Source: a virus. Taken from it: 64,000 nt of DNA. The notes under the pieces were generated by a model. The model was not told the origin of the DNA, did not search any database, and saw nothing but the letters and a program-made list of their open reading frames with translations. A program made the position numbers and the translations under genes. Positions 4,527 to 64,000 of the stretch are shown piece by piece (positions within the stretch are counted from its first letter, which is position 1; every line of letters starts with the position of its first letter). Location: UHGV virus genome UHGV-0211740, one strand, 5' to 3'.

Positions 4527-7124
4527 ATGCGTATTCAACACAACATTGATAACGTATTTCAGATGATTGAGGGGCACAGGAAGTGCCTCGATAATAACAC
4601 AGGTATTACCAACACCACTACACAAAATAAGCTAGTAAACCCTGATGGTCTTATAGCTGCAGGGTGGGCAGGTAATAAGATAAACAATGATTGGGCAATG
4701 CATGAGGCCCAAGCTGTGTTGATTCTGGGGTACATTGAAGCATATAGGGCATCGAAAAGCGATTTCTATCTGGACAGGGCAAAAGAGGCTTGGGAAGCTT
4801 ACAATAGTCATCTCTTGGGAGTATACGCAGTAGAAAGTAAAATGCAAAGACTATCCCACTACCCGTTATCTACTGATGGGGTTCCATCCCATGGTGGGTT
4901 TAAAGATGTGGTGGTGTCTTTTAACAAAGGTAGAGGAAAAATTCCGGCGGGATCTCCGACATGGGGTGAATACCTGGATAAAGCATTCCAGGCGTATAAC
5001 GGTGTGTTGGGAAGAAACACAGTTGATGCGGATGTTTACGGCGGCACAGATGCTAACCCCAACTGGACAACATCCGGATTAAGTTGGTGGGTTGAATGGT
5101 ATATAGCGTGGGACGGTAACCGCTATTGGGCCAACGGCAGCATAGCTGACAGTGGGCACACATCTGCAGAGTTTGGCACAATACAGCTGCAAGATAAGGG
5201 CGTTACAGGTAGCCATAAGGTAACCTACTGTGTGAGATTGCCTCAAGAGCAAGGTGGATCTGTGATACCTTCAGGATCTCCAGTAGTTGTAAACCCTATA
5301 AACGTGGTTGCAGATAATCAGGCTCCGGAATTGGACGGAGAAGAGATGTGGTGTGACGCTTGTTATCAACTCTACTCTTTGACAGGCGAGGAGAAGTATT
5401 ACACTGCGTTTAAACAGTCTTACGACAAGCTGCTTAATTTCAGTGATATAAACGCCTACGACAAACTGTTTAGAAAGACCACGTTGATTAAGGCACCGTT
5501 TACAGATGGTACTTGTCTTGTTGCAGGAACAGTTCCTGCTATGAGCAGGGACAGTGACGGATATATCAACTTTAGAATGAACGCACGCCAGCCCTGCGAG
5601 ATAATTCAAAAAGGTACCACCTACAAAATAGGTAGAGATACTGAAATTGTTATGAATTTCGGGGGAGAAGGTGTTCTGTTCCAGCCTCATTTCATCATTA
5701 ACGATGGCAACAATAATAAAAAACAATACAGAATAGGGGTTCCTTTTGGTGCGGCAGATGTAACAGAGGTAGTTGCCAAAGTTACTGATTTCGTCGAGGT
5801 GGTGGGGAAGGATGGTAACCCGTACCTCCTGCCTGAGGAGGAGAACATTGTCGTAACTGGTGGCGCTAGTGTTAGTATGCAATACGCTACTGACATTTAC
5901 AACCACTCTGACAACTTCTCCCGTTGCAATATAGCAAAAGGTAAAGTAACTTTCAATTTCGGAAGAGAGATTTCTTTAAACTCAGTGACTTACCGATCAG
6001 ATGATGAAATGGTAAGAGTCAAATTCCTTGACAAAGATCGTTGGTTATGGTATGCTGATCTATATGCTACTAACGGACAATGGGTAACAGAAACTCTTAC
6101 TTTAGGGGATTTCAAACTAGACCCAACACAACCTCATCACACCGAGGAGGAGATTAAGCCTTTCTTTGCTAACACCAAAGGTATTACCTCTGTAGATTTC
6201 AGTCTGAGCGATAGACAGATAGGAAATGGCCTGTTTGATCTGTATTGCGTCAATACGCTGCCTCAATTCTATATTGCAGATATGGATGCTTACCTAATCT
6301 GGTTTAGTGTATGGATGGCAAGCAAGACAGAATCGGTTGCTAAAGTTGGCGATTGCTATGTCAGAAACTACAAGCAAGGGGCATACAGACACACTCCAGG
6401 TGTGTTCCCTGCAGGGAAGGTGATAGATAAGGAAAGTTATCTTCTGGAAGAAAAGCCAAATTGGCCCTACCCAGGCATGCAATACCCAGCGGTATATTGT
6501 ATGGGCGCGGAAAACATAGATCGCCTCAGGTTGTCAAATACAATTGGGTTTATGTACGACTCTCAAGTTTGGTATAATAACACATTTAAAACCGAAGGAC
6601 CAGTCGCATCCCGCTACGTGTGGCAGAGAGGTAATGAGGGATTGTCTGGTTGGTGGGAGATGGTAGATAACTCTAAACTCCAGTCAAGATCTTTTGTTGC
6701 TGCGTGCCGCACAATATATGAGCTCAAGAAACATAAAGAGCCTGTTGATGAAAAACTTTTCCTGTTCTGCCAGAGATGGGCATGGTTCCTCAACAGATTC
6801 CAATCATCTCATTCTGGAAATCTTCCCACAGACTTTAACACCTCTGGAGGATATTCTTATCAAGACAGAGGAGACAGGATGTGGGTGGTCGGTGAGTGGC
6901 TTGCAGGTTGCTGCTGGTTAGGCTTGTGTGGGTATTCAGAGACAATACCTCAAATAGATATTGTTGTAGAAGCTTGCATGAAGCTGCTGCAAAAGCACCA
7001 CTTCATTAATGGCGATAATGTTTTAAACGGCTGCTGGGCAGTTTCTGATCCGGTAGGCTATCACTCTGGCGAAATCCTTCGCGGTCTAGGCCTTTATGCT
7101 CAATACCGTGGATTGTACCTTTAA
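4527..7124 (+). CDS. large virion/tail protein, function unknown
   Basis: 865-aa ORF, Trp/Tyr/Gly-rich; GGAG RBS; sits between two anchor-domain proteins. Confidence 0.55.
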   Translation: MRIQHNIDNVFQMIEGHRKCLDNNTGITNTTTQNKLVNPDGLIAAGWAGNKINNDWAMHEAQAVLILGYIEAYRASKSDFYLDRAKEAWEAYNSHLLGVYAVESKMQRLSHYPLSTDGVPSHGGFKDVVVSFNKGRGKIPAGSPTWGEYLDKAFQAYNGVLGRNTVDADVYGGTDANPNWTTSGLSWWVEWYIAWDGNRYWANGSIADSGHTSAEFGTIQLQDKGVTGSHKVTYCVRLPQEQGGSVIPSGSPVVVNPINVVADNQAPELDGEEMWCDACYQLYSLTGEEKYYTAFKQSYDKLLNFSDINAYDKLFRKTTLIKAPFTDGTCLVAGTVPAMSRDSDGYINFRMNARQPCEIIQKGTTYKIGRDTEIVMNFGGEGVLFQPHFIINDGNNNKKQYRIGVPFGAADVTEVVAKVTDFVEVVGKDGNPYLLPEEENIVVTGGASVSMQYATDIYNHSDNFSRCNIAKGKVTFNFGREISLNSVTYRSDDEMVRVKFLDKDRWLWYADLYATNGQWVTETLTLGDFKLDPTQPHHTEEEIKPFFANTKGITSVDFSLSDRQIGNGLFDLYCVNTLPQFYIADMDAYLIWFSVWMASKTESVAKVGDCYVRNYKQGAYRHTPGVFPAGKVIDKESYLLEEKPNWPYPGMQYPAVYCMGAENIDRLRLSNTIGFMYDSQVWYNNTFKTEGPVASRYVWQRGNEGLSGWWEMVDNSKLQSRSFVAACRTIYELKKHKEPVDEKLFLFCQRWAWFLNRFQSSHSGNLPTDFNTSGGYSYQDRGDRMWVVGEWLAGCCWLGLCGYSETIPQIDIVVEACMKLLQKHHFINGDNVLNGCWAVSDPVGYHSGEILRGLGLYAQYRGLYL

Positions 7125-36236: not shown

Positions 36237-37697
36237 TTACTTAGCATACTCGATTAACTCTACAGTTTTCCCAAAGCTTGGGATATAATTTTTATTATAC
36301 CCCTCTGTGAGAACCCACAAAGTATCGTACTTTTTCCACTTGTTGTCAACAGCCTTTTGTTCAAAGTTATGCTCAAAGTATAGGTCGGTCAGGACGATGA
36401 CATCTTTTGCATTTGGTATGTTGGCATCCAGATACTCGAACACGCAAGCGGCTGTTGTGCCCCATGTTGAGTGGACCCCATAATTAATCATCTCGTCGAT
36501 GTTGCCACGAGTGTATACTTTGACCTCTCCAACCTCAGTTGACCAACAGAACATCGTAACCTTAAACTCTTTATACAGATTGCACAATCCAGTGATCTCA
36601 TTGAACATTTTCTTTAAAGTTCTTTGAGAGATCGAGCCAGAAACGTCTAAAGCCACCACAATATCTATCGTGTTTTCCGGATTACGCCCAGGAACAATAA
36701 CGTGCTGATTCTTGTTTATAGCTCCAACTTTCCGCATTGTGCTGGTCAAAGATCCGGATCGGCGACCAGGCTTTCTGTAGGTCAGTTCAGCCTTTCGTTT
36801 AGACAACATACGTTGCTTAATGATGTCTATATAGTTGATTACAGGCTTACCTCTATTCTTGACAAACTCTCGCACAGCCTCAGGGCAACGACCTCCGGAA
36901 GCTTGCATTGCTGCCTCCAGCATGTCACCAGAGTCCTGCATGGCCTGATCTTTATCAGATTGGCTAATTACAGGTTGTGGCTGATCATACCCCATAGCCT
37001 TTCCGAGATCATCACTGGCCCCACCGTTTCCACTCATGTGATCATCGGTTTGTCGCTTATCTCCTTGAGGGTTCTCACCTTTGCCATTCTTACTTTTACT
37101 GTTATTCTGGTCTCTTTGCTTGTCAAGAACTGCATAGACGTTCTCAGCAATCCATCCATGAAACCTCATATCACAGTAGCAACTGGCTAAGAAGCCAAAA
37201 GGCTTACCTTTTACGAAGGTAGTGCTTTTCCCCTTCGGGAAGAAAACACAAGGTGGCTTGCTAAAGTCAACCACAAGACCTGTATTGATAACGTGATCAC
37301 AAGCAATATTGAACAGTTCCGGTTCAAAGCTTTTACCACGGACCAGATGATCACAGATAATATGTCCAACCTCATGCGACAGAAGAAAGGCCACCTCTTT
37401 CACAGATTTTGGGGAATAGAAAACCTCAGCCATCTCAAACTGCTCGTCAGTAAGAGAGGCTTTAAGAATAGCCCTGCGCTCATCAGCCAACCCCATAATG
37501 AACTCAGGGCTGTAATAGATGCGTTTATGGTCGGTTGCCATGGTGGAGCACCATGTGTGGTTTTCTACGAACTGCAACCCTGACAACAGTGTGCCATAAA
37601 ACGGCAGCTTTTCAAGGAGATACATACGTGCAGCCTGCAACATTCTCAGGGCATCATCTTTTTGCGAGGCAATGATTTCTGAACTTCTGCTATCCAT
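36237..37697 (-). CDS. putative metallopeptidase (HExxH) fused to von Willebrand factor A domain
   Basis: N-terminal LSHEVGHIICDH; C-terminal DIVVALDVSGSIS (MIDAS DxSxS); GGAG RBS. Confidence 0.6.
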   Translation of the reverse strand: MDSRSSEIIASQKDDALRMLQAARMYLLEKLPFYGTLLSGLQFVENHTWCSTMATDHKRIYYSPEFIMGLADERRAILKASLTDEQFEMAEVFYSPKSVKEVAFLLSHEVGHIICDHLVRGKSFEPELFNIACDHVINTGLVVDFSKPPCVFFPKGKSTTFVKGKPFGFLASCYCDMRFHGWIAENVYAVLDKQRDQNNSKSKNGKGENPQGDKRQTDDHMSGNGGASDDLGKAMGYDQPQPVISQSDKDQAMQDSGDMLEAAMQASGGRCPEAVREFVKNRGKPVINYIDIIKQRMLSKRKAELTYRKPGRRSGSLTSTMRKVGAINKNQHVIVPGRNPENTIDIVVALDVSGSISQRTLKKMFNEITGLCNLYKEFKVTMFCWSTEVGEVKVYTRGNIDEMINYGVHSTWGTTAACVFEYLDANIPNAKDVIVLTDLYFEHNFEQKAVDNKWKKYDTLWVLTEGYNKNYIPSFGKTVELIEYAK

Positions 37698-54981: not shown

Positions 54982-55257
54982 AAATAACATTGTGGCTTCA
55001 TAGAGCAATCTATGTCGAATAACCTCTTTAACTGCGGGAAGCCTAAACCTTATGGCAAGGTAATCCGCAACGAAGCGCTCAAAAGAGCGAACGCTCAGAG
55101 GCCATTCCGAAAGGAAGTAGACCAGCAAGTGCGGTCGAAATGGGAGGGTTCCTATGGTTGTTTACCCTAGGAATGTGAGATGGTCCGATCCTACGTGAAA
55201 ACGTATGGCTATGCACGTAATGGTGCGGGGTAGCTTAACGACCTACCTGAACTATTG
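54982..55257 (+). other. putative group I self-splicing intron (276 nt, no ORF) in the DNA polymerase gene
   Basis: Exons in the same frame; joining gives RRIIYYH-DEYQLQV (motif C); 5' exon ends in U, intron ends in G; IGS GUGG; P-like ACUGCGGGAA and Q-like AAUCCGCAAC. Confidence 0.6.
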
Positions 55258-55611
55258 GATGAGTACCAACTTCAAGTACCTGATACACCTAAATATAAAA
55301 CTGTGTACACCTTCGACACAATTGAAGAGTTGGAGGAGTTCAAAGCCAAGCAGGAAGCCAAACTTCATGTGTTCGACGGTCATAAGTACAAAAAGGCACG
55401 CAAGGATGAGGATGGAAACGAAGTAGTTGACAGTAATGGGAATACGGTATACGATCCTATCCTGAACGATGACGGAAAGCTTGAACTTATCTGGAGCCCT
55501 GTGGGTGAAATGGTGGTACATTGCTTCTGGCAAGCGTCTAAAATGATGGGAGTCCCATTCCAGATCACAGGTGAGTACTTGTGTGGTCGTAACTGGGGTG
55601 ATTGTCACTAA
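55258..55611 (+). CDS. DNA polymerase, family A, exon 2 (second half of motif C to C-terminus)
   Basis: In frame with exon 1; begins DEYQLQV; ends GRNWGDCH, like the Pol I terminus. Confidence 0.65.
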   Translation, partial: DEYQLQVPDTPKYKTVYTFDTIEELEEFKAKQEAKLHVFDGHKYKKARKDEDGNEVVDSNGNTVYDPILNDDGKLELIWSPVGEMVVHCFWQASKMMGVPFQITGEYLCGRNWGDCH

Positions 55612-55660
55612 TGTAAACTATCAGCACAGGGAGGTGCTGTTGAGCAGAGAGGAGACTTTT

Positions 55661-55945
55661 ATGGTAGTAGAACCAACAAAAACATTTACATCCATGACTA
55701 TTCCTGTTATTATGCAGGTGAAATGCGTTCAGGTGTCCCAAGTATGGCCAGGTACTAAAATACCAACAGGGCCAGATTTCTTTCAAGTTGACAAAGTGTA
55801 CAATGTCTGGAAGGCACCAGACTGCTACCCTTTCATTAAAGATGACCGTGGAATGCTGTGGTATCTGGGAAATGATTTGACACTACATCTCGGAAATGCT
55901 ATTATTGCAGTGTTCCAGCTTAATAAGAAGGAGACAGATCAATGA
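55661..55945 (+). CDS. hypothetical small protein
   Basis: ORF track 55571..55945; ATG 55661 after GAGAGGAG. Confidence 0.45.
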   Translation: MVVEPTKTFTSMTIPVIMQVKCVQVSQVWPGTKIPTGPDFFQVDKVYNVWKAPDCYPFIKDDRGMLWYLGNDLTLHLGNAIIAVFQLNKKETDQ

Positions 55946-56169
55946 TAACTTTTGTTAAAGCTACGTTTGTAGAAGAAAAGATGACAGACCTATCGTTCTT
56001 TAAAGAAGGTAAGGTCTACAAGGTTTATTACGACAAGGATCGCAGAAACAATATGATCGAAGACGAGGAAGGTATCGCCTGGTTTATCTCCCATCTGGCA
56101 AACGGTGAGTATCATATCTATGGGACCACCCTGCTTGCCAAGTTTGTAGCTGTGGAAGAGAGCCTATGA
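55942..56169 (+). CDS. hypothetical small protein
   Basis: ORF track; AAGGAGA RBS. Confidence 0.45.
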   Translation: MITFVKATFVEEKMTDLSFFKEGKVYKVYYDKDRRNNMIEDEEGIAWFISHLANGEYHIYGTTLLAKFVAVEESL

Positions 56170-56360
56170 AAGTAAAGTATCTGGCTGAGGGCATGAGTAG
56201 GTATTTTACCCTTGGAGAGGAATATTGGCCCTTTACAAGTAACGGCGATGTCTACGTGAAAGATAATTTCGGCACGCCGTGGTTTCTGCACTCTAATGGG
56301 CTGGGATACTCCATTTACTGCGGTGCAGTGAACAACACAACTCTTGCAGAGTTTGTATAG
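56166..56360 (+). CDS. hypothetical small protein
   Basis: ORF track; 4-nt overlap. Confidence 0.4.
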   Translation: MKVKYLAEGMSRYFTLGEEYWPFTSNGDVYVKDNFGTPWFLHSNGLGYSIYCGAVNNTTLAEFV

Positions 56361-56370
56361 AGGAGGTAGA

Positions 56371-56742
56371 ATGTTAGTAAAAGGTACCCACACAGTCAAA
56401 CAACGTATCGAAGTTGAGATCGATGACTGCGAGCTGAAGCATATTTTACGGTCATGCTCCAACGTTTTGCTCCTTAGTATTCTCCAGGAGCGAGCGGAGA
56501 ACGAGTTCTTAAATGCACTGGCAGGCCGCCCTGGTGACTTCTGTGTGCGTAAGCGTGGTGACAACAAGTCATGGTTGTGGGAAATCGATGCCGACTGGGA
56601 TTACCACAAAAATGAGGGTATAGATGAGCCTATTCGTGAATTGACAGACAAAGAGGTGCAGATGTACAATGAAGTTTGTCATTGGGCAACACGCCAACAA
56701 ATTTACCTCGACCCTGTGTGGCTGATTGAAAATAGCCATTGA
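56371..56742 (+). CDS. hypothetical protein
   Basis: ORF track 56344..56742; ATG 56371 after AGGAGG. Confidence 0.5.
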   Translation: MLVKGTHTVKQRIEVEIDDCELKHILRSCSNVLLLSILQERAENEFLNALAGRPGDFCVRKRGDNKSWLWEIDADWDYHKNEGIDEPIRELTDKEVQMYNEVCHWATRQQIYLDPVWLIENSH

Positions 56743-56767
56743 CAAGAAGTAAGATTAGATATAAGAT
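56739..56767 (+). promoter_or_regulatory. sigma70-like promoter TTGACA-17-TAAGAT
   Basis: Read directly; -35 overlaps upstream stop. Confidence 0.5.
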
Positions 56768-56818
56768 GCTTCACACAAACAGAGCGTTGATTTTTAAATA
56801 ACCAAGGAGACTGCCAAG

Positions 56819-57001
56819 ATGAAAATTACTTTGAAGCCAGAATGCGTTGCAAATGACCGAGCTTTTAAAGATTGCACAGTCGGTGCAATTTATGAAGCAG
56901 AGTTTTGTGAGAACCCTCTGGTAAAAGCCCTTCTGGAAGAAGGGGCCCCTTTATCACAAGAAGAGATTGATGGAAAACTCAGCACAGTGCCTTACCTTTA
57001 A
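56819..57001 (+). CDS. hypothetical small protein
   Basis: AAGGAGA RBS; downstream of promoter. Confidence 0.45.
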   Translation: MKITLKPECVANDRAFKDCTVGAIYEAEFCENPLVKALLEEGAPLSQEEIDGKLSTVPYL

Positions 57002-57071
57002 AGATGATGAAGGAGACTCTGTCTGGTGCACTGTTAATGAAGTAGTTTTTGTAAAACCTGAACATTAATAC

Positions 57072-57100
57072 TTGACAACAGTGATGGGGCCTAATATAAT
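57072..57100 (+). promoter_or_regulatory. consensus sigma70 promoter TTGACA-17-TATAAT
   Basis: Perfect hexamers with 17-nt spacer. Confidence 0.6.
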
Positions 57101-57131
57101 GGCCCTATCAAAACGAAAGGGGACCACAGCA

Positions 57132-57392
57132 ATGACCAAACAATATCAACGAATTAAAGCCAAGGTTAAGCCAGACTATCTGGAGAAGGACTCTGCTTTT
57201 CGGGACTGCACAGCTGACAAAGTTTACACAGGGGCCGTCCTGTTGAACGATGAACTTGAAGTAGGTGTGCTTGGCAAAGAGGCCGTCATCGAGGATGACA
57301 AAGGGGACTGTGTTTTCTGCACCACACGTGAGCTAGAAGTCTTAGAATACTTCGGTGAAATCTTCAACTCCTTAGATGACGAGGCAGAGTGA
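57132..57392 (+). CDS. hypothetical small protein
   Basis: ORF track 57072..57392 begins inside the promoter; ATG 57132 with AAAGGGGA RBS. Confidence 0.5.
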   Translation: MTKQYQRIKAKVKPDYLEKDSAFRDCTADKVYTGAVLLNDELEVGVLGKEAVIEDDKGDCVFCTTRELEVLEYFGEIFNSLDDEAE

Positions 57393-57793
57393 TGAAAAAC
57401 ATTTGGGATATTAATATCTTTGAAGCCTCTGAGCTTGACGGTGCTGATGGGGTTATTATGGTTTCTGATGGAAAGGCCACGCTGACCTCTGGACTGACCT
57501 ATAATGACACTACCTACGTACTGGGAGATCTTGCCTTGTTGAAATCGACAGGTGACTCTCTGGAAGAACGTCTGCAAGGATTTGCCTTTAAAGAAGGCAC
57601 AAACACCACGCTAATGTGCACCACACGCACTGTTCAGTTGGGCAACGGGGTATATATGGTCATTGCAGTGTGTCCTAAATTCAGCAACGTCAACAAAGAT
57701 GATGCTGACGCTGTCAACGATGTGGTTGTTCTCTTCGTGGGTGACGCTATGGCAGATTTGATGAATGCAGGAGAAGCAGCAAATGAAGACTGA
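57389..57793 (+). CDS. hypothetical protein
   Basis: ORF track; 4-nt overlap. Confidence 0.45.
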   Translation: MMKNIWDINIFEASELDGADGVIMVSDGKATLTSGLTYNDTTYVLGDLALLKSTGDSLEERLQGFAFKEGTNTTLMCTTRTVQLGNGVYMVIAVCPKFSNVNKDDADAVNDVVVLFVGDAMADLMNAGEAANED

Positions 57794-58085
57794 AAACATC
57801 ACCCCCGCAGGGTTCTTAAAAGTATACCGTGAACTGCTATATACTACAGAGGACAGTGTTCTAGAGTATCCAGAATATCTTTTGCTGTATAAGTATCTGC
57901 AGGAGGCGGGTGAAAATTTGCCAGTTAGTGCAGAAGGTGGTCCGAACTGGGTATACAGCGCATGGAGAAAGGTTGACATTCTCCCAGACCCAGGTAAAGA
58001 TATGGTAGTTTGGCAGCTAATTAATAACATCGGGGTTCCAATCTTCGATGAGGCTGTTAAGATTTATTTTGAACTTGACGATTGA
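57783..58085 (+). CDS. hypothetical small protein
   Basis: ORF track 57765..58085; ATG 57783 after AGGAG. Confidence 0.45.
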   Translation: MKTENITPAGFLKVYRELLYTTEDSVLEYPEYLLLYKYLQEAGENLPVSAEGGPNWVYSAWRKVDILPDPGKDMVVWQLINNIGVPIFDEAVKIYFELDD

Positions 58086-58102
58086 TATCAGGAGACCTTA
58101 AG

Positions 58103-58348
58103 ATGGCTGAAGTAGTTGCTCGCGCAGGACAGAAAGTACGTTGTGTTGAAGTAGGTTTCGGCGGTAAAGGTTGCCAGAACCTGACACAAGATAAGGAATA
58201 TACTGTTATTGCTGGAGGTGGTGACGAAAGCATTGTGTTTGATGACCACATTCTTGATGCTGAAAACTTTGAAATACTTGACGACGATGGTGATCCAATC
58301 ACCTGCCTGTTGGATGGCTCTTGGGGCACTTTTGAAGTAGTCGGTTAA
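58103..58348 (+). CDS. hypothetical small protein
   Basis: ORF track 58082..58348; ATG 58103 after AGGAGA. Confidence 0.5.
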   Translation: MAEVVARAGQKVRCVEVGFGGKGCQNLTQDKEYTVIAGGGDESIVFDDHILDAENFEILDDDGDPITCLLDGSWGTFEVVG

Positions 58349-58357
58349 TAATAAATG

Positions 58358-58386
58358 TTGTAATTTACAGAAGGGGATGCTAAAAT
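58358..58386 (+). promoter_or_regulatory. sigma70-like promoter TTGTAA-17-TAAAAT
   Basis: Read directly; -10 overlaps the first ATG of ORF 58385. Confidence 0.45.
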
Positions 58387-58429
58387 GGTATCTCCTTTAT
58401 GTTGTTCAAATAAAATCGGAGATTCCACA

Positions 58430-58795
58430 ATGGAACAAATGAACGATCAAGCGTCGGTTGCGATGAACGAGCAAGAACAACCTCAAGAATTTTTCTTAGG
58501 GTTAAGCAAAGATCAAGTGTCTCTTCTGCTGGTGCTTTCCTCTTTCATGGGAAGACTACAGGAGCTCACACAACAACCAGAGGCTGAACAATTATTTCAG
58601 GCTCTGCGTGAAGAAGAAAAATATCGTCGTTTGGACTATGCCTTGGGTTGGGTAGCTCAACAACGGGATATGCTAATGGCCCTCTCTGGGACCACAAGTT
58701 TTGCAATGGGCCTGTTGGCTCAAGTCCAGGACAAATTGATTCAAGCAGGGTTTGCACACACGGCAAACACCAATGAAGAACAAGGAGACAAATAA
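58430..58795 (+). CDS. hypothetical protein
   Basis: ORF track 58385..58795; ATG 58430 with GGAGA RBS lies downstream of the promoter. Confidence 0.45.
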   Translation: MEQMNDQASVAMNEQEQPQEFFLGLSKDQVSLLLVLSSFMGRLQELTQQPEAEQLFQALREEEKYRRLDYALGWVAQQRDMLMALSGTTSFAMGLLAQVQDKLIQAGFAHTANTNEEQGDK

Positions 58796-60021
58796 TGAGC
58801 GTTATTCAGCAATTTGCTAACCCGATGAATCCACGTGAGACTGTTTTACTGGCTCACGGTATGATTAAACGTGTCAGCATCAAGCCTATCAAAGGTGCTG
58901 ATCCCACAACAGGTATTAAAACCACTGTGTGGCAAGGTAAGAAAATTGAATCCAGCCACACCGTCTCTTTACTTATTTCTGAACTGGACTCCTCCGATAA
59001 CCCGCTCCAGGGTGGTGAAGAAATCTGGATCAGCATGGGAGATAAACTGCTTAAACCAGGTCATCAAGACTCTGTTTCTGTCAAAATTGATGATAAGTGG
59101 GAAACCGTAACGCCGGGATGGATCGTAAATATCCCTTTGAAGGCAAACGAGCATAATGGTAAGACCTACTACAAAGGCTCGCTGGCTAAGATGGTTAAAC
59201 TGGGGGCAGGAGAGGCTCCAGCAGCTACTCAGCAGCAAAAACAGCAACAAGGTGCACAATCACAAGGCCAGAAGCAGAAACCTCAGCAGAATGCCAATCA
59301 GGACGTTTTACGCATCTATGGTGATGTAACTCAGATTGTTGGCAACGTGGTTACTGTTAACGACCACAAGATTGGCGAAGGTGCTATGGTTGTCTCTGAT
59401 GAGCAGCTTAAAGACCTGGTGGTGGGTGGTCGTGTTGCAGCTATTGTTGACAAAGACACTGGTAACATTATTAGTGGTTTTAAAGCCTACCCACCTAAAG
59501 CAGAGAGCGGCACCCAAGGCTCTGGTGGCAAGCGTAAATCCTCTTACGATCCTATTGGTGTAGAAACAGGGCATAGTATCAATGCGTTGCAAATCATCTT
59601 GGATCGCGGGTTTAAGGTAGATAGTCCTTTGGATGTGGCTAAAACACTGCACGTGGTCACTATTGAGCTTAAGAAAGAGTATGCTCAAGCCACCAACCGA
59701 ACTGAGGATGAAGTAGGTGCCAGTGTCGGTAATGCTGTGTTGAACGCTTGTCGCCGTATTGACAAGAAAACGAAAGTTGATGATTTTGCAGTGGCAATTA
59801 CTGCAGAAGCAAAAGATGTCTTGACTAATCTGGCTGAGCCGTTGTACGATTGGATCAAGAACGGTGCTGGGTCAACTAGCTATCAAGAACCTCAAGCTAC
59901 CAAACAGGAAGCCGCTCCACAGCAAAACACTGTAGACGCTCCCCCTGTAAGTGATGGGGAAGATGACCCGATGGATCAGAATCCGGCGCAATATGCCTTT
60001 GATGATGACATACCTTTTTAA
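58795..60021 (+). CDS. putative single-stranded DNA-binding protein with SSB-type C-terminal tip (FDDDIPF)
   Basis: C-terminal ...AFDDDIPF; Gln-rich linker; body not recognisable by eye as canonical OB fold. Confidence 0.45.
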   Translation: MSVIQQFANPMNPRETVLLAHGMIKRVSIKPIKGADPTTGIKTTVWQGKKIESSHTVSLLISELDSSDNPLQGGEEIWISMGDKLLKPGHQDSVSVKIDDKWETVTPGWIVNIPLKANEHNGKTYYKGSLAKMVKLGAGEAPAATQQQKQQQGAQSQGQKQKPQQNANQDVLRIYGDVTQIVGNVVTVNDHKIGEGAMVVSDEQLKDLVVGGRVAAIVDKDTGNIISGFKAYPPKAESGTQGSGGKRKSSYDPIGVETGHSINALQIILDRGFKVDSPLDVAKTLHVVTIELKKEYAQATNRTEDEVGASVGNAVLNACRRIDKKTKVDDFAVAITAEAKDVLTNLAEPLYDWIKNGAGSTSYQEPQATKQEAAPQQNTVDAPPVSDGEDDPMDQNPAQYAFDDDIPF

Positions 60022-60036
60022 CATTTAGTTAACATG

Positions 60037-60066
60037 GCCCTGCCTGAAAGGGTGGGGCATTTTTGT
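60037..60066 (+). terminator. rho-independent terminator (GGCCCTGCC-TGAAA-GGGTGGGGC-ATTTTTG)
   Basis: Near-identical to the terminator at 49621. Confidence 0.6.
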
Positions 60067-60083
60067 ATAAGAGGATCTGAAAA

Positions 60084-60500
60084 ATGACATTAGAAGATAT
60101 TATTGTTAAACCTGAGAACTATGACCAATACAACCTATCAACTCAATCTGTAGACCTAGGATGCGCCACAGTCAGTGCATGGCTGGTTAACGGAAAAGAG
60201 CTTGACGCGTGCCTGGAAGCACACATGTCGGTGAATAAATTTCTCGATGAAAATACCCACTGGCTAGAGGGTGCAGGTGTGTACGCTTCGTGGCTGGAGA
60301 GCATGGGATTTGACTACCAATCTGAAGAGGGATGGTGGAGCTATTTAGCTGTCTGTCCAGAGACGCTGCAATGCTTCATGAAATATTCTGAAGATTTGGA
60401 GTATCGCGAGGTGGTTGACGGAGCTATCGCTCGTTATAGTCGTAAACCTTTTTCCCACGACATCAAAACTGTGGAAGAATTTATTGAAGTTTTCTGTTGA
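60084..60500 (+). CDS. hypothetical protein
   Basis: ORF track; AAGAGGA RBS. Confidence 0.5.
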   Translation: MTLEDIIVKPENYDQYNLSTQSVDLGCATVSAWLVNGKELDACLEAHMSVNKFLDENTHWLEGAGVYASWLESMGFDYQSEEGWWSYLAVCPETLQCFMKYSEDLEYREVVDGAIARYSRKPFSHDIKTVEEFIEVFC

Positions 60501-60525
60501 CACAGGCTGAAAGGTGTGCCATTAT
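60497..60525 (+). promoter_or_regulatory. possible promoter TTGACA-17-CATTAT
   Basis: Good -35, weak -10. Confidence 0.3.
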
Positions 60526-60596
60526 GGCTTAATAAAACGGGAGGATGTGATGAACGAAGAAAACTGGGATGTATAACTGACAGGAGACCGCTGCCC

Positions 60597-60794
60597 ATGA
60601 TTTATCGAATCCGTGTAAGAGAAGATGCACCAGGTTGTTACTTTGACTGGCGTGGGTGGTGGTTTCTCCACCCAATGGATGGACTCACAGATAGAATGCT
60701 GGATGCCGCCATTTATACAGATACCGACATAGAGTATAATCTCTATCTGAAGGACGGTATAGATAACGGTCTGTTTGAAGCAATTCCTGTGTAA
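60597..60794 (+). CDS. hypothetical small protein
   Basis: ORF track 60516..60794; ATG 60597 after CAGGAGA. Confidence 0.4.
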   Translation: MIYRIRVREDAPGCYFDWRGWWFLHPMDGLTDRMLDAAIYTDTDIEYNLYLKDGIDNGLFEAIPV

Positions 60795-60861
60795 GAGACT
60801 GTATAACTATGTTTTATGATCTTCCTGTAGCACCACCACCTGTTGAACCCGGAGAACTAAG

Positions 60862-61287
60862 ATGATCTATGAAATGCCAAAACTGATTCGTGACGATGCC
60901 CAAAACGCTCACACCATTATTATGGGCAAACGCATGGATATTATTTGTCATAAAGATTTCTGGGAAGGAAGTTACTTCACAGAGTATTTTGGTAAACTGG
61001 ACAATGGTCTGCTGATCCAGTTCTACACCGATGCGGAAAACAACATTCACTGGGAGTTCGAAACTGAAGATATCCATAAACTTTTCACCTTCCTCGGTAT
61101 TAAGGTTGAGGCCAAGTTTGAAGAAGGTGAGTGCGACGATTGTGGATTCTACGAGGTAACAGATTTCTATCTTCCAAGTGGTAAAAATCTCTACTACGAA
61201 AGCCACTTCGGTAACTCCAATATGCCACAGTGCTGGACTGAGTTTTTGGAAATTGCAGAAGAGGAGTTGTCATACCATGATTATTGA
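60862..61287 (+). CDS. hypothetical protein
   Basis: ORF track; GGAGAA RBS. Confidence 0.5.
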   Translation: MIYEMPKLIRDDAQNAHTIIMGKRMDIICHKDFWEGSYFTEYFGKLDNGLLIQFYTDAENNIHWEFETEDIHKLFTFLGIKVEAKFEEGECDDCGFYEVTDFYLPSGKNLYYESHFGNSNMPQCWTEFLEIAEEELSYHDY

Positions 61288-61735
61288 TACTGTAGAGGGA
61301 GATCTAATCTCCCTTTTCAAGAAAGGGGCAGGACACATGATCCACGGTTGTAACTGCTTTCACACAATGGGGGCAGGTATAGCGAAAGATATTGCCCGTG
61401 AGTTCCCTCAAGCATTGGCAGCCGACAAAGAGACTGCTTATGGCAATCTGGACAAGCTGGGCATGTTTTCTTGTTGGGAGCATTTTGCCAAGAACAGGGT
61501 TGTATATGGAATCAACCTGTATACTCAGTTCTACCCTGGGCCCAATGCTGAATACTTCTCAATCATGAAAGGTTTTGAGCGAGTCAACGAGGTATTCAAA
61601 GGTGTGTCATTGCCGTTCTACATTCCTAAAATCGGATGCGGTATTGGTGGTCTAAAGTGGGAACACGTAGAAGATGTCATTAATCTTGCAACCACGGATA
61701 TTGATGTGGTTGTAGTAGAGTACAAAAAGTGTTGA
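61277..61735 (+). CDS. macrodomain protein, TARG1/DarG-like (putative ADP-ribose glycohydrolase)
   Basis: ORF track 61178..61735; ATG 61277 after GAGGAG; GDLISLF...MIHGCNCFHTMGAGIAKDIAREFP resembles the TARG1/DarG macrodomain signature as recalled. Confidence 0.5.
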   Translation: MIIDTVEGDLISLFKKGAGHMIHGCNCFHTMGAGIAKDIAREFPQALAADKETAYGNLDKLGMFSCWEHFAKNRVVYGINLYTQFYPGPNAEYFSIMKGFERVNEVFKGVSLPFYIPKIGCGIGGLKWEHVEDVINLATTDIDVVVVEYKKC

Positions 61736-61760
61736 CGACCATCTTCTGAGGTGATATAGT
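61732..61760 (+). promoter_or_regulatory. sigma70-like promoter TTGACG-17-TATAGT
   Basis: Read directly; -35 overlaps upstream stop. Confidence 0.5.
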
Positions 61761-61799
61761 CTCCACAACAACTAAGAGAGGAGAGCACTGTGGAGACTA
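61757..61799. promoter_or_regulatory. 11-bp perfect inverted repeat (TAGTCTCCACA ... TGTGGAGACTA, 21-nt spacer), operator-like
   Basis: Left arm overlaps the -10; right arm overlaps the GTG of a small ORF. Confidence 0.45.
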
Positions 61800-61960
61800 A
61801 AATCTTAATTCTTGCTGTGGTAGATACAACCGAAGGAGCTATATTCGAATCTGCAGGAGGGTATTTCTACCTACCATACGGAAAAAGAACTTCCGAGCCA
61901 AGTAAAGATTCAATCCTTGAAGTGTTCCCGTGCGCTTTCTGGCTGGAGATTTTGGTATAA
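61790..61960 (+). CDS. small ORF (56 aa), hypothetical
   Basis: Not in ORF track (below 60 aa); GTG start after AGAGAGGAGAG. Confidence 0.3.
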   Translation: METKILILAVVDTTEGAIFESAGGYFYLPYGKRTSEPSKDSILEVFPCAFWLEILV

Positions 61961-61986
61961 GATTACAGAGGATTTTGGAGAGAATT

Positions 61987-62181
61987 ATGAGAAACAAGAG
62001 AGAGCTTTACTCTGGCGAGTGGATAAACGATCAACAGGTTGGAGAGGTAACCTGCTTCCGGTGTTTTACTCGGTACAATCTTAAAACTGCACCAAAAAGT
62101 GTTCCAAAGACTGACGGTTATTACATAAAAGAACCTCATTGCCCAAAATGTAAATGCCGATTATACTGGAGTAACCTGTAA
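61987..62181 (+). CDS. small zinc-ribbon protein
   Basis: ORF track 61930..62181; ATG 61987 after GGAGAG; CFRCF...CPKCKC. Confidence 0.45.
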   Translation: MRNKRELYSGEWINDQQVGEVTCFRCFTRYNLKTAPKSVPKTDGYYIKEPHCPKCKCRLYWSNL

Positions 62182-62185
62182 AAGA

Positions 62186-62213
62186 TTGACATCTGAAAAC
62201 TGCGGTGTATAAT
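62186..62213 (+). promoter_or_regulatory. consensus sigma70 promoter TTGACA-16-TATAAT
   Basis: Perfect hexamers with 16-nt spacer. Confidence 0.55.
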
Positions 62214-62244
62214 ACAAGCATAGACTGGCAGAGAGGGATATATT

Positions 62245-62436
62245 ATGGTAATTTTTAATCGAGACGGTATCATAGTTAGACAGCACCCATTCCTTGAATA
62301 CTACCAAATTGAGCAATGGTGCTACGGAGATTGCAGTCACTCCTATGGGCAAAGTTGGGGATATCGCACAGTTTTTGAATCAACAGATCTTGATAAAGTA
62401 AGACAGAAAGTTTTAGAACTTCTTAACAACAAGTGA
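62245..62436 (+). CDS. hypothetical small protein
   Basis: AGAGGGA RBS; downstream of promoter. Confidence 0.45.
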   Translation: MVIFNRDGIIVRQHPFLEYYQIEQWCYGDCSHSYGQSWGYRTVFESTDLDKVRQKVLELLNNK

Positions 62437-62446
62437 GTATCGTGCC

Positions 62447-62779
62447 ATGGTAACATTAGAAAGACGTAAAGCTAACGCCGCTACACTGGCAGACATCTTT
62501 TGGGATTGCAATTTAAAAGATACCCGAAATTGTGGCGCATCTGTAGATGTATTATTTCCACGACCTACCATTGTTGCGATGGGTAACCTGCTGGATACAG
62601 TTACAGGTGCATGGGATAAGGAGGGCGGTTTCTATATCTGGCAACCTGTCTACGGAGCCTGGAAAGAGGTAAGGGGTGCTGACGACTTTGGGCCTACAGC
62701 TGCTAAGATGGATGGCTGGAAAATTTATGTTGGAAACGATATGAAGCTGAAAGGCGAGATTGTTTATTGGTTACCTTAA
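62447..62779 (+). CDS. hypothetical protein
   Basis: ORF track; weak RBS. Confidence 0.4.
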   Translation: MVTLERRKANAATLADIFWDCNLKDTRNCGASVDVLFPRPTIVAMGNLLDTVTGAWDKEGGFYIWQPVYGAWKEVRGADDFGPTAAKMDGWKIYVGNDMKLKGEIVYWLP

Positions 62780-62799
62780 TAAAACGCAGGAGATAAAGT

Positions 62800-63045
62800 A
62801 TGAACAAAGAATGGACATTAGTAGACGGCGTTAAAAACATGCCTCTTGGAAAGTATATCGTAGCCATGGCTGATGAAGATGGTGATATCGATTTCGGAGC
62901 TTGTGAAGTTGTTCTTGCAGGTTCAGGTGATCATATGTGTAAAACTGGGATAATTAACGGTCAGTTCTACTTTGATCACAACCCTGTTGTAGCGTATATG
63001 GCTATGCCAGAGTTCAAGCTCCCAAAGGAGTGCGCCAATGTTTAA
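62800..63045 (+). CDS. hypothetical small protein
   Basis: CAGGAGA RBS. Confidence 0.45.
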   Translation: MNKEWTLVDGVKNMPLGKYIVAMADEDGDIDFGACEVVLAGSGDHMCKTGIINGQFYFDHNPVVAYMAMPEFKLPKECANV

Positions 63046-63232
63046 GCTAAAATCCGCATGGAACATTGCTGTAGGAGATGAGATCCGCATCCCAGGCGGG
63101 AAGACCATTATGAAGATATCTCGTATTGAGTACGAAGGTGACCGTGTATTCCACATCTTTGCAGAAGATGGTCGAGAAATTTATATACAGGCAGGATCAC
63201 ACATCTATATTCGTAAAGGGGATGACAAATGA
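63038..63232 (+). CDS. hypothetical small protein
   Basis: GGAG RBS; overlaps upstream gene. Confidence 0.4.
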   Translation: MFKLKSAWNIAVGDEIRIPGGKTIMKISRIEYEGDRVFHIFAEDGREIYIQAGSHIYIRKGDDK

Positions 63233-63558
63233 CAGAGATCATCATTTCAACTGCAGGGTATGTATTCCTGACAATCATTGCGCTGATCATCTTGGTGGTG
63301 GTGTATGGATTTGTTATCCTGCCTATTCTTGAGACATTTAGTTTGTGTCGGTGTTGGAGAAAGGCTTACGGTCCACAGCCGTGGAAAGACTGGCCCCATC
63401 TGTTACGCATAGCGTTCTCTTATGCCTATGATCACTCCAGCAGTGCATGCATAACCGGATACCACGCCCACAATTGGAGCTGGGAAGGGTTGAGGAAGTG
63501 GAATGTTACAAAGACTATACCTCTCCGCATGTATAAACCTAAAAACAAAGATAGCTGA
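63229..63558 (+). CDS. small membrane protein (N-terminal transmembrane helix)
   Basis: AGGGGA RBS; hydrophobic stretch YVFLTIIALIILVVVYGFVILPIL. Confidence 0.45.
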   Translation: MTEIIISTAGYVFLTIIALIILVVVYGFVILPILETFSLCRCWRKAYGPQPWKDWPHLLRIAFSYAYDHSSSACITGYHAHNWSWEGLRKWNVTKTIPLRMYKPKNKDS

Positions 63559-63561
63559 TAC

Positions 63562-63590
63562 TTGAAAATTTCTGACATATCAAGTATAAG
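63562..63590 (+). promoter_or_regulatory. possible promoter TTGAAA-17-TATAAG
   Basis: Read directly at the start of the terminal non-coding region. Confidence 0.3.
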
Positions 63591-63869
63591 GGGGATTTCT
63601 AAAATGGATTTCCCCCTTTTTGATATTTTACCCAGCCAGATATTTTAAAATTCTTAGAAAATCAGAAAATGGATCGAAAACTAAAATGGATTTTTTCAGG
63701 ACGGGCGTGGCAAATTGTGCCAATCTCTCCAGCCATTTGCACCATATCCGAGATCACCATTTCAGATTTCCCACACATACACACCTCTCCCCACTACCTT
63801 TCTCTACCTGCTCTTGGTGCTTTATGACGGAAAGCTCATCACTGTTAGTGAGCTGCGGTACAATCTTTC

Positions 63870-63981
63870 CAGTACTCGATCTACTTTTCATTTCAGGGCT
63901 TGGATTTTCTGAAAATTTTTCTCGATAGATTTCTCAGTACTCGATCTGTTTTTCGTTTTCTGAATTGGATTTTCTGGAAAT
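63870..63981. repeat. two imperfect ~47-bp direct repeats in non-coding DNA
   Basis: CAGTACTCGATCT...GGATTTTCTG(A/G)AAAT at 63870-63916 and 63935-63981. Confidence 0.55.
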
Positions 63982-64000
63982 CCAAGCCCCCCAAACACAC

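Follow-up and report, generated by a model that had tools for sequence, protein, structure and literature searches.

The window analysed here is a 64,000-nucleotide stretch of a virus genome, UHGV-0211740. Its layout runs from tail and baseplate genes through replication genes to a long series of small plus-strand open reading frames (ORFs) after the DNA polymerase gene. In this series, downstream of the polymerase gene, lies the subject of this study, a coding sequence (61277..61735, + strand, from ATG 61277 to TGA, stop included) for a stand-alone macrodomain protein of 152 aa. The surrounding region has 95-96.5% DNA identity to many rV5-like myoviruses of Escherichia coli (Vequintavirus), and its best match is BASEL phage Bas52, RudolfGeigy. 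The gene is assigned as the orthologue of bas52_0091 of RudolfGeigy and as a homologue of Tk.4/AdfM of phage T4. The role considered most probable for its product would be the removal of ADP-ribose from phage DNA modified by a host DarT2 toxin.

The macrodomain gene

The original prediction, made from the DNA letters alone, described a product of about 150 aa with two motifs, and both are found in the translation of 61277-61735: GDLISLF forms residues 8-14 and MIHGCNCFHTMGAGIAKDIAREFP residues 21-44. A strong ribosome-binding site had also been claimed. The purine-rich AGAAGAGGAG is present (61257..61266, +, read from the sequence), with a spacing of 10 nt from GGAG to ATG, which is on the long side of the acceptable range.

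The start codon is ATG in the window and GTG at the same position in three Vequintavirus relatives. The Met encoded at 61277 is also where homologues start, T4 Tk.4 among them. For these reasons the longer starts, namely GTG 61178 in the ORF list and the 165-aa call in the PMBT16 annotation, are unsupported and were rejected. The gene is under purifying selection. The ratio of nonsynonymous to synonymous substitution rates (dN/dS, Nei-Gojobori) is 0.08-0.12 between the window and three Vequintavirus orthologues, and 0.19 between two of the relatives. Within codons 5-15 of the gene (61291-61319) lies an imperfect inverted repeat of 13 nt, with a 3-nt loop and 85% complementarity, which is probably incidental.

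Assignment to the macrodomain fold

A TARG1/DarG-like macrodomain had been proposed for this gene, with a hidden Markov model (HMM) search and a structure prediction as the means of checking it, and both were favourable. The Pfam Macro model, PF01661, gives 25.9 bits (E 1e-5), above its gathering cutoff of 22, and PHROG 335 is matched at E 4.7e-60. Models of DarG, matched over their macro part with E-values around 1e-12, are the sole PADLOC match and the sole significant NCBIfam match (E 3.7e-13 and 1.9e-12); the other NCBIfam match has an E-value of 0.11. The NCBIfam DarG match covers positions 3-144 of a 338-position model, that is, the N-terminal macro part only, at 47 bits against a cutoff of 250. 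When a profile of the family was compared with the PDB, E-values from 4e-15 to 6e-12 were obtained for BT1257, Mycobacterium tuberculosis DarG, SCO6735, TARG1, Poa1p and Thermus aquaticus DarG.

An AlphaFold2 model built on the family alignment has a predicted local distance difference test score (pLDDT) of 96.8. Its nearest solved structures are BT1257, M. tuberculosis DarG, Poa1p, TARG1 and Thermosipho DarTG, all of them macrodomains of the TARG1/DarG class. The two Gly-rich loops lining the ADP-ribose cleft, by which the macrodomain fold is recognised, are both present. The closest neighbours in structure and sequence belong to the ALC1-like/TARG1-like class and not to the MacroD, viral, PARG or macroH2A classes. 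By these matches the protein is identified as a macrodomain, far beyond chance, and its placement in the TARG1/DarG-like class is judged correct because of the Pfam, PHROG, DarG-model, alignment and AlphaFold2 results.

The family is widespread. Among 5.8 billion proteins searched, 304 homologues were found. The majority are stand-alone proteins roughly 150 aa long, encoded by large phages and by some bacteria, and a precomputed PF01661 assignment is attached to most of the homologues. Members occur in 2742 of the 50,697 phage records. In existing records the gene is annotated as ‘macro domain protein’, ‘phosphatase’ or ‘Poa1p-like’. One structural match in BFVD, A0A481YV05, is a Marseillevirus protein with an SNF2-subfamily annotation, whose macrodomain is 40% identical to the window protein (template modelling score, TM, 0.93). 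The pairing of macro and SNF2 parts in this protein recalls the architecture of human ALC1/CHD1L.

Active-site residues

Conservation was counted in an alignment of 112 homologues. Thirteen residues are invariant: G24, N26, C27, G34, A36, D50, N80, Y82, T83, Q84, P117, G120 and G122. Loop 1 of the ADP-ribose pocket, residues 23-36, reads HGCNCFHTMGAGIA (61343..61384, +) and was delimited by conservation and by alignments to M. tuberculosis DarG, SCO6735 and Poa1p. It carries H23, N26 and the phosphate-binding turn G32-A33-G34. H23, conserved in at least 90% of the homologues, aligns with H24 of SCO6735 and H23 of Poa1p, and N26 aligns with N22 of DarG and N27 of SCO6735. The roles of these loop-1 positions have been described previously (PMC9411070, PMC13309987), that of DarG N22 being stated in the latter (PMC13309987).

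The second Gly-rich loop, which binds the diphosphate, is PKIGCGIGG at residues 117-125 (61625..61651, +), placed by conservation and by alignment to PRIGCGLDRLQW of TARG1 and PPLGVGNGGLDW of DarG. Its last residue, G125, is conserved in at least 90% of the homologues. The TARG1 segment GLDRLQW corresponds to GIGGLKW in the window protein, so that a Gly occupies the position of TARG1 Asp125.

Between the two loops lies NLYTQ, residues 80-84 (61514..61528, +), recognised by its invariance and by profile alignments. Q84 stands at the position of the catalytic Lys, aligning with K80 of DarG, K84 of TARG1 and Gln85 of SCO6735. In the profile alignment ‘NlYTQf’ is set against NFPTKKHW of DarG, LITKKRA of TARG1 and NMIGQHG of SCO6735/BT1257, and HGCN of the window protein falls opposite HVCN/HICN of SCO6735/BT1257. 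The loop following the Gln is short (QFYPGPNAEY), and relative to the phage family SCO6735 and BT1257 require an insertion of 5-6 residues at this point. The equivalence of Q84 and the Lys is based on sequence and profile alignments together with the published structural alignment of SCO6735. A six-sequence MAFFT alignment misaligns SCO6735 around the Gln, and the HMMER profile alignment was used for residue equivalence.

Comparison with cellular and phage macrodomains

DarG (T. aquaticus and M. tuberculosis; 5M31, 5M3I) and TARG1 (4J5R) share the macrodomain class and the pocket architecture with the window protein. DarG N22 is kept as N26, and DarG too has a Gly at the TARG1 Asp125 position. 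The catalytic Lys (K80/K84) is replaced by Gln, identity to M. tuberculosis DarG is 25%, and the Lys84/Asp125 dyad of TARG1 is not kept, its two positions being Gln and Gly. DarG has in addition a C-terminal DarT-binding domain and an adjacent darT, neither of which accompanies the 152-aa protein. A DarG or TARG1 identity was rejected on account of the invariant Gln, the lack of the Asp, of the DarT-binding domain and of darT. Judged from its residues, the protein is of the TARG1/DarG class and not of the TARG1/DarG type. The class given by the original prediction therefore stands, whereas a Lys-type mechanism does not, as the invariant Q84 replaces the catalytic Lys.

The loss of the Lys can be compared with the Gln-type ALC1-like proteins SCO6735 and BT1257 (PDB 5E3B, 2FG1), which likewise have a Gln for Lys and a His-x-Cys-Asn loop. 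Their identity to the phage protein is about 23%, and they are encoded by cellular, DNA-damage-induced genes, not phage genes. Gln85 of SCO6735 is structurally equivalent to Lys80/Lys84, and the changes Q85A and Q85E abolish activity (PMC9411070). It has been proposed that this residue positions the substrate and the activated water (PMC9411070). On DNA, SCO6735 releases ADP-ribose linked to thymidine more rapidly than either DarG or TARG1, and it also relieves DarT toxicity in E. coli (PMC9411070). Since SCO6735 performs this reaction, a Gln at the catalytic-Lys site would be compatible with DNA de-ADP-ribosylation by a different chemistry.

Among phages, gp104 of PhiKZ (the chimallivirus AdfM) counters DarTG2, with both biochemical and genetic proof (Cell Rep 2026, PMC13309987), and is imported into the phage nucleus (PMC13309987). 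It resembles the role proposed for the window protein in being a stand-alone phage macrodomain that removes DarT2 ADP-ribose from DNA. The PhiKZ protein is, however, Lys-type (TVNVVGVMG, FPTKDNW; N23/K78) and 37% identical to M. tuberculosis DarG. Its similarity to the window protein is 22% identity and 26 bits, and it represents a different lineage. A Lys-type macrodomain with FPTKKHW, 42% identical to M. tuberculosis DarG, was also observed in Escherichia phage ev_rybdy3 (217-714) and other 77-kb E. coli phages. These ev_rybdy3-type proteins resemble DarG far more than the window protein does and appear to be coliphage candidates for a PhiKZ-type AdfM.

Relationship to Tk.4/AdfM of phage T4

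In the transposon screen of the HIDEN-SEQ preprint, tk.4 was the single T4 gene conditionally required on DarTG2 (bioRxiv 10.1101/2025.11.20.689424). A clean tk.4 deletion sensitises T4 to DarTG2, and the product was named AdfM, for anti-DarT factor Macrodomain (bioRxiv 10.1101/2025.11.20.689424). Tk.4 aligns with the window protein over residues 1-150 of 152, with 39% identity and 67% positives (E 8e-44, 129 bits). The query was taken from a T2-type record and is 100% identical to T4 records. This full-length homology supports, at the computational level, the predicted counter-defence against DarT-like toxins.

Both proteins are stand-alone macrodomains of about 150 aa from lytic E. coli myoviruses. 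They have in common HGCNCFHTMG, NLYTQF, a short PGPN.EY loop after the Gln, and P-x-IG-x-GIG. They differ at 61% of residues and in genomic context, tk.4 lying between vs and tk and the window gene among small ORFs after the DNA polymerase gene. The vs-tk.4-tk order is found in T2/T4, ECCR664 and Krischvirus MIZ4, and not at the window locus.

The closest Straboviridae version to the window protein is that of Krischvirus (67.5% identity) and not T4 Tk.4 (39%). The Krischvirus protein in question is encoded in MIZ4 at the syntenic vs-tk.4-tk locus (2501-2956 of the comparison sequence), and this identity links the gene of Vequintavirus with the orthologous group of Tk.4. In a neighbour-joining tree with 200 bootstraps, the window and Krischvirus proteins group together at 100% and are joined by T4 Tk.4 at 66%, within a ‘YTQ’ clade supported at 77%. 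Because the Krischvirus protein is so much closer than T4 Tk.4, horizontal exchange of the macro gene between Vequintavirus and Straboviridae, two unrelated myovirus families, is suggested.

In T4_7t1 (OL964745), a laboratory mutant clone of T4, tk.4/adfM is split into two short ORFs (1531-1906) and so disrupted. This is consistent with the gene being dispensable on standard hosts.

Proposed function and alternatives

The favoured explanation, with a probability of roughly 0.6, is that the gene product is an ‘orphan antitoxin’, a stand-alone ADP-ribosyl glycohydrolase with a macrodomain, of the same type as T4 Tk.4/AdfM, that would counter DarT2 on DNA. The gene is probably expressed early, within the small-gene block after the DNA polymerase gene. 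In a host with a DarTG2-type system, freed DarT2 would ADP-ribosylate thymidines in single-stranded phage DNA and stop replication. The macro protein would bind ADP-ribose in the cleft formed by the loops HGCNCFHTMGAGIA and PKIGCGIGG and hydrolyse the N-glycosidic bond to thymine, which would restore replicable phage DNA. Catalysis would proceed without the Lys of DarG and TARG1, with Q84 in its place, as with the essential Gln of SCO6735. The gene, the purifying selection on it, its fold class, its residue pattern and its homology and clade membership with T4 Tk.4 are established here; by analogy with Tk.4 and SCO6735, the Vequintavirus protein would have the same substrate and role.

One alternative, held to be unlikely, is that the protein removes ADP-ribose from something other than the DNA modified by DarT2. 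Its substrate could be uracil-ADP-ribose on RNA, ADP-ribose linked to phosphate ends of RNA or DNA, or Asp/Glu-linked ADP-ribosylation of proteins. The modification would come from another host toxin or defence ADP-ribosyltransferase (ART), or from a phage ART in need of tuning. Enzymes of the TARG1 class accept a variety of substrates: uracil-ADP-ribose on RNA is also cleaved by SCO6735, DarG and TARG1. SCO6735 in addition removes Glu-linked ADP-ribose from PARP1 (PMC9411070). Activity on RNA phosphate ends is ascribed to SCO6735 in the discussion of the RNA paper, whereas the results section has it inactive against 5'-phosphate ADP-ribosylation; SCO6735 is also inactive on 2'-OH RNA ADP-ribosylation. 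About 40% of medium-sized phages and 41% of myoviruses have a macrodomain, a distribution far wider than that of any single defence system. Against this alternative, no ART gene was found among the neighbours scanned with Pfam, and the sole known phenotype of a close homologue is specific to DarTG2, tk.4 having been the single significant match in its screen.

The most serious rival, although rated marginally lower still, is that the protein is a phosphatase of the Adpp (Poa1p-like) type, acting on ADP-ribose-1''-phosphate. Defence proteins with a RES domain (aRES) cleave NAD+ to nicotinamide and ADP-ribose-1''-phosphate, and the macrodomain would dephosphorylate the latter to ADP-ribose, so that NAD+ could be rebuilt or a toxic product removed. 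Adpp (gp137) of Vibrio phage Gary converts ADP-ribose-1''-phosphate to ADP-ribose and is required to overcome aRES (bioRxiv 10.64898/2026.01.28.702374), which makes it a demonstrated macrodomain phosphatase acting against this defence. Adpp is the macrodomain of NARP1 operons and enables NARP1 to rebuild NAD+ (bioRxiv 10.64898/2026.01.28.702374). It is, like the window protein, a Gln-type phage macrodomain of similar length with a His/Asn loop. The two have in common the Gln position, an H-x-[CA]-N-C-F..MG.G loop and a GxGxxGG loop, at 33% identity (E 7e-17). PHROG 335 and many records label the family ‘phosphatase’ or ‘Poa1p-like’, and Poa1p is as close a structural neighbour of the window protein as the DarG/TARG1-type ones. 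In addition, the NARP1-adjacent macro protein of Acinetobacter phage phiAbaA1 has the YTQ motif and falls in the same clade as the window protein.

The match of Adpp to the window protein is nevertheless weaker than that of Tk.4 (63.5 versus 129 bits). The Adpp proteins of Gary, Thalassa and phi3 form a clade of their own (100%), with YGQ and a loop 3-6 residues longer. The Adpp signature is HQ[CA]NCF, N-x-YGQ and a longer post-Gln loop, against HGCNCF, NLYTQ and a short loop in the window protein. The function of Adpp needs NARP1, and Adpp always stands beside Adps and Namat; the window gene does not, and a search of this phage lineage yielded no NARP1 genes. The search covered the window, positions 1-45 kb and 80-130 kb of RudolfGeigy (about 95%; about 7 kb left out) and 1-50 kb of slur16. 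With phage C11 queries in tblastn, no Namat match was obtained in the window and the genomes searched, and the best Adps match had an E-value of 0.12; neither gene is annotated in the RudolfGeigy or slur16 records. The published table of NARP1-associated macro proteins holds no Escherichia, Salmonella or Klebsiella phage (bioRxiv 10.64898/2026.01.28.702374). T4 likewise has no NARP1 context, yet its Tk.4 has a DarTG2 phenotype. An Adpp role is ranked below the AdfM role because NARP1 is absent where it was searched for, Adpp forms a separate clade and its score is weaker.

A binding-only or degenerate macrodomain, serving as a sponge or reader of ADP-ribose or a signal, might be imagined from Q84 in place of Lys, Gly in place of TARG1 Asp125 and the existence of non-catalytic reader macrodomains, but it is very improbable given that the Gln is invariant in 112 homologues and catalytically essential in the active SCO6735, that Gary Adpp, also Gln-type, is an active enzyme, and that all pocket residues are under strong purifying selection.

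The AdfM-type role preferred here has several points to answer. The T4 evidence is purely genetic, and the DNA de-ADP-ribosylation step is inferred by the preprint itself (bioRxiv 10.1101/2025.11.20.689424). The DarTG2 phenotype is shown for T4 only, the challenge set of the transposon library of Bas54 (a Vequintavirus) having excluded DarTG2. The window protein is 39% identical to Tk.4, and the sub-clade that joins the two has moderate bootstrap support (66%). The window protein has neither the 5-residue-longer mobile loop of SCO6735 nor its K34/K89 DNA contacts. The wider Gln-type phage family includes Adpp, a proven ADP-ribose-1''-phosphate phosphatase, and the one NARP1-adjacent protein inside the YTQ clade (phiAbaA1) leaves the AdfM/Adpp boundary less than clean. 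Substrate specificity therefore cannot be read from motifs alone, and the Gln does not discriminate between AdfM and Adpp, as Adpp proteins are also Gln-type. H23 and T30 match H23 and S30 of Poa1p, residues mutated in solved Poa1p structures; their equivalents are common to the whole Gln-type group and hence non-discriminating as well. Finally, the genomic context is uninformative, the neighbours of the macro gene having no Pfam matches.

Promoter-like sites and inverted repeats

A promoter and an operator-like palindrome had been noted next to the gene, and a promoter-like site and a palindrome are indeed present. A sigma-70-like promoter, TTGACG-17-TATAGT with an extended -10 TG (61732..61760, +), was found by consensus scan and overlaps the stop codon of the macro gene. 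In the window, PMBT16, S127 and C12 the two hexamers and the TG are kept, while the spacer varies. The palindrome is a perfect inverted repeat, TAGTCTCCACA / TGTGGAGACTA (61757..61799, no strand assigned), with 11-nt arms at 61757-61767 and 61789-61799 that are 100% complementary and a 21-nt spacer. No other perfect inverted repeat was reported in 55000-64000, and when 61736-61835 was shuffled with its composition preserved, only 10% of the shuffles had any 7-nt inverted repeat at all.

Its left arm shares bases with the -10 element, and the next ORF has its Shine-Dalgarno sequence within the spacer and its GTG start in the right arm. As RNA the element folds at -15.9 kcal/mol. Its arms carry C-to-T and A-to-G changes in two relatives, with G.U pairing kept; in a third relative there are two mismatched positions. 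Possible roles are a hairpin on read-through mRNA that acts in translation or processing, and a site bound by protein. Since both the promoter at 61732 and the palindrome come after the macro gene, their target would be the downstream ORF at 61790-61960 and not the macro gene. Regulation of the macro gene by the palindrome was rejected for its downstream position, and, as the repeat is only partly conserved, the operator role originally suggested is, like that of an RNA hairpin, no more than putative.

Upstream, a candidate sigma-70-like promoter, TTGACA-17-CATTAT with TG (60497..60525, +; scan score 10/12 plus TG), stands at a gene boundary on the ORF map. The gene block 60516-61735, with the macro gene in it, could be transcribed from this site. 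At 62186-62213 a perfect sigma-70 consensus, TTGACA-16-TATAAT, was also observed, exactly at a gene boundary, as is the 60497 site. Such sites suggest that the small-gene block has many host-type early promoters, which would fit a multi-promoter early region.

Neighbouring genes and related genomes

The gene immediately upstream is a 141-aa ORF from the ORF list with no assigned function and no Pfam match (60862..61287, +). It overlaps the macro start by 11 nt, the macro ATG lying inside it, and this overlap suggests translational coupling. The two are probably co-transcribed and translationally coupled, and the same gene order occurs in PMBT16, slur16, S127 and RudolfGeigy. Downstream is a 56-aa ORF with a GTG start (61790..61960, +), found in the ORF list, annotated in relatives and without a Pfam match. 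In a Pfam scan of ten flanking and ten mid-window ORFs, only an endolysin-type Hydrolase_2 protein and a DUF2201 metallopeptidase/VWA protein were matched; no ART, NADAR or NAD-salvage gene was among these twenty ORFs. A partner NADAR protein (AdfN) has been described in the literature for the ‘Vequintavirinae’ Bas60-62, a set that does not include Bas52, the closest relative of the window. The window holds a single macro gene of the Tk.4 type.

The DUF2201 protein is encoded on the minus strand (36240-37697), has 486 aa and combines a DUF2201_N domain (putative metallopeptidase) with a VWA-like DUF2201 domain. MoxR ATPases and VWA proteins usually act as pairs. A MoxR ATPase of the Vequintavirus Bas54 has been reported as an anti-defence gene against DS-28 (HIDEN-SEQ preprint, bioRxiv 10.1101/2025.11.20.689424).

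PMBT16 and slur16 contain a 579-nt ‘endonuclease VII’ gene between 408-aa and 138-aa ORFs (4644-5222 of the comparison sequence). It is absent from the window (60021-60084) and from RudolfGeigy, a pattern that would be consistent with a mobile endonuclease gene. Vequintaviruses of 135-140 kb, nearly identical to E. coli phages, also appear under the name ‘Campylobacter phage’ in sixteen records (MG0656xx, host C. jejuni). At least one of these, C12, is flagged UNVERIFIED, and the C. jejuni host labels of these records look doubtful.

Implications

The idea of a phage macrodomain directed against DarT is no longer new, as AdfM has been described in T4 and PhiKZ. The name AdfM now covers two unrelated lineages, one Gln-type (T4, Krischvirus and Vequintavirus) and one Lys-type (PhiKZ). 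In sequence space the AdfM proteins of the Gln-type adjoin the Adpp phosphatases, and the labels ‘phosphatase’ and ‘Poa1p-like’ mask a functional split.

It is a speculative idea, held to be unlikely, that the Gln-type proteins form a broad-spectrum family in which one protein of 150 residues would blunt both DarTG2 and RES/aRES, two unrelated NAD+-based defences, or that the Vequintavirus/Krischvirus sub-clade acts on a hitherto undescribed substrate. On the first reading, Tk.4/AdfM and Adpp, whose lineages together occur in about 5% of phage records, may be one family that both strips thymidine- or uracil-linked ADP-ribose and dephosphorylates ADP-ribose-1''-phosphate. Such a bifunctional family may use a Lys-independent, water-activating mechanism. 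The Vequintavirus/Krischvirus sub-clade, 67% identical internally and 39% identical to T4, may have shifted its substrate.

If the proposed role is true, rV5-like phages, which are phage-therapy candidates with a broad E. coli host range, would carry an answer to DarTG2. This would help to predict which clinical strains can be infected by rV5-like phages.

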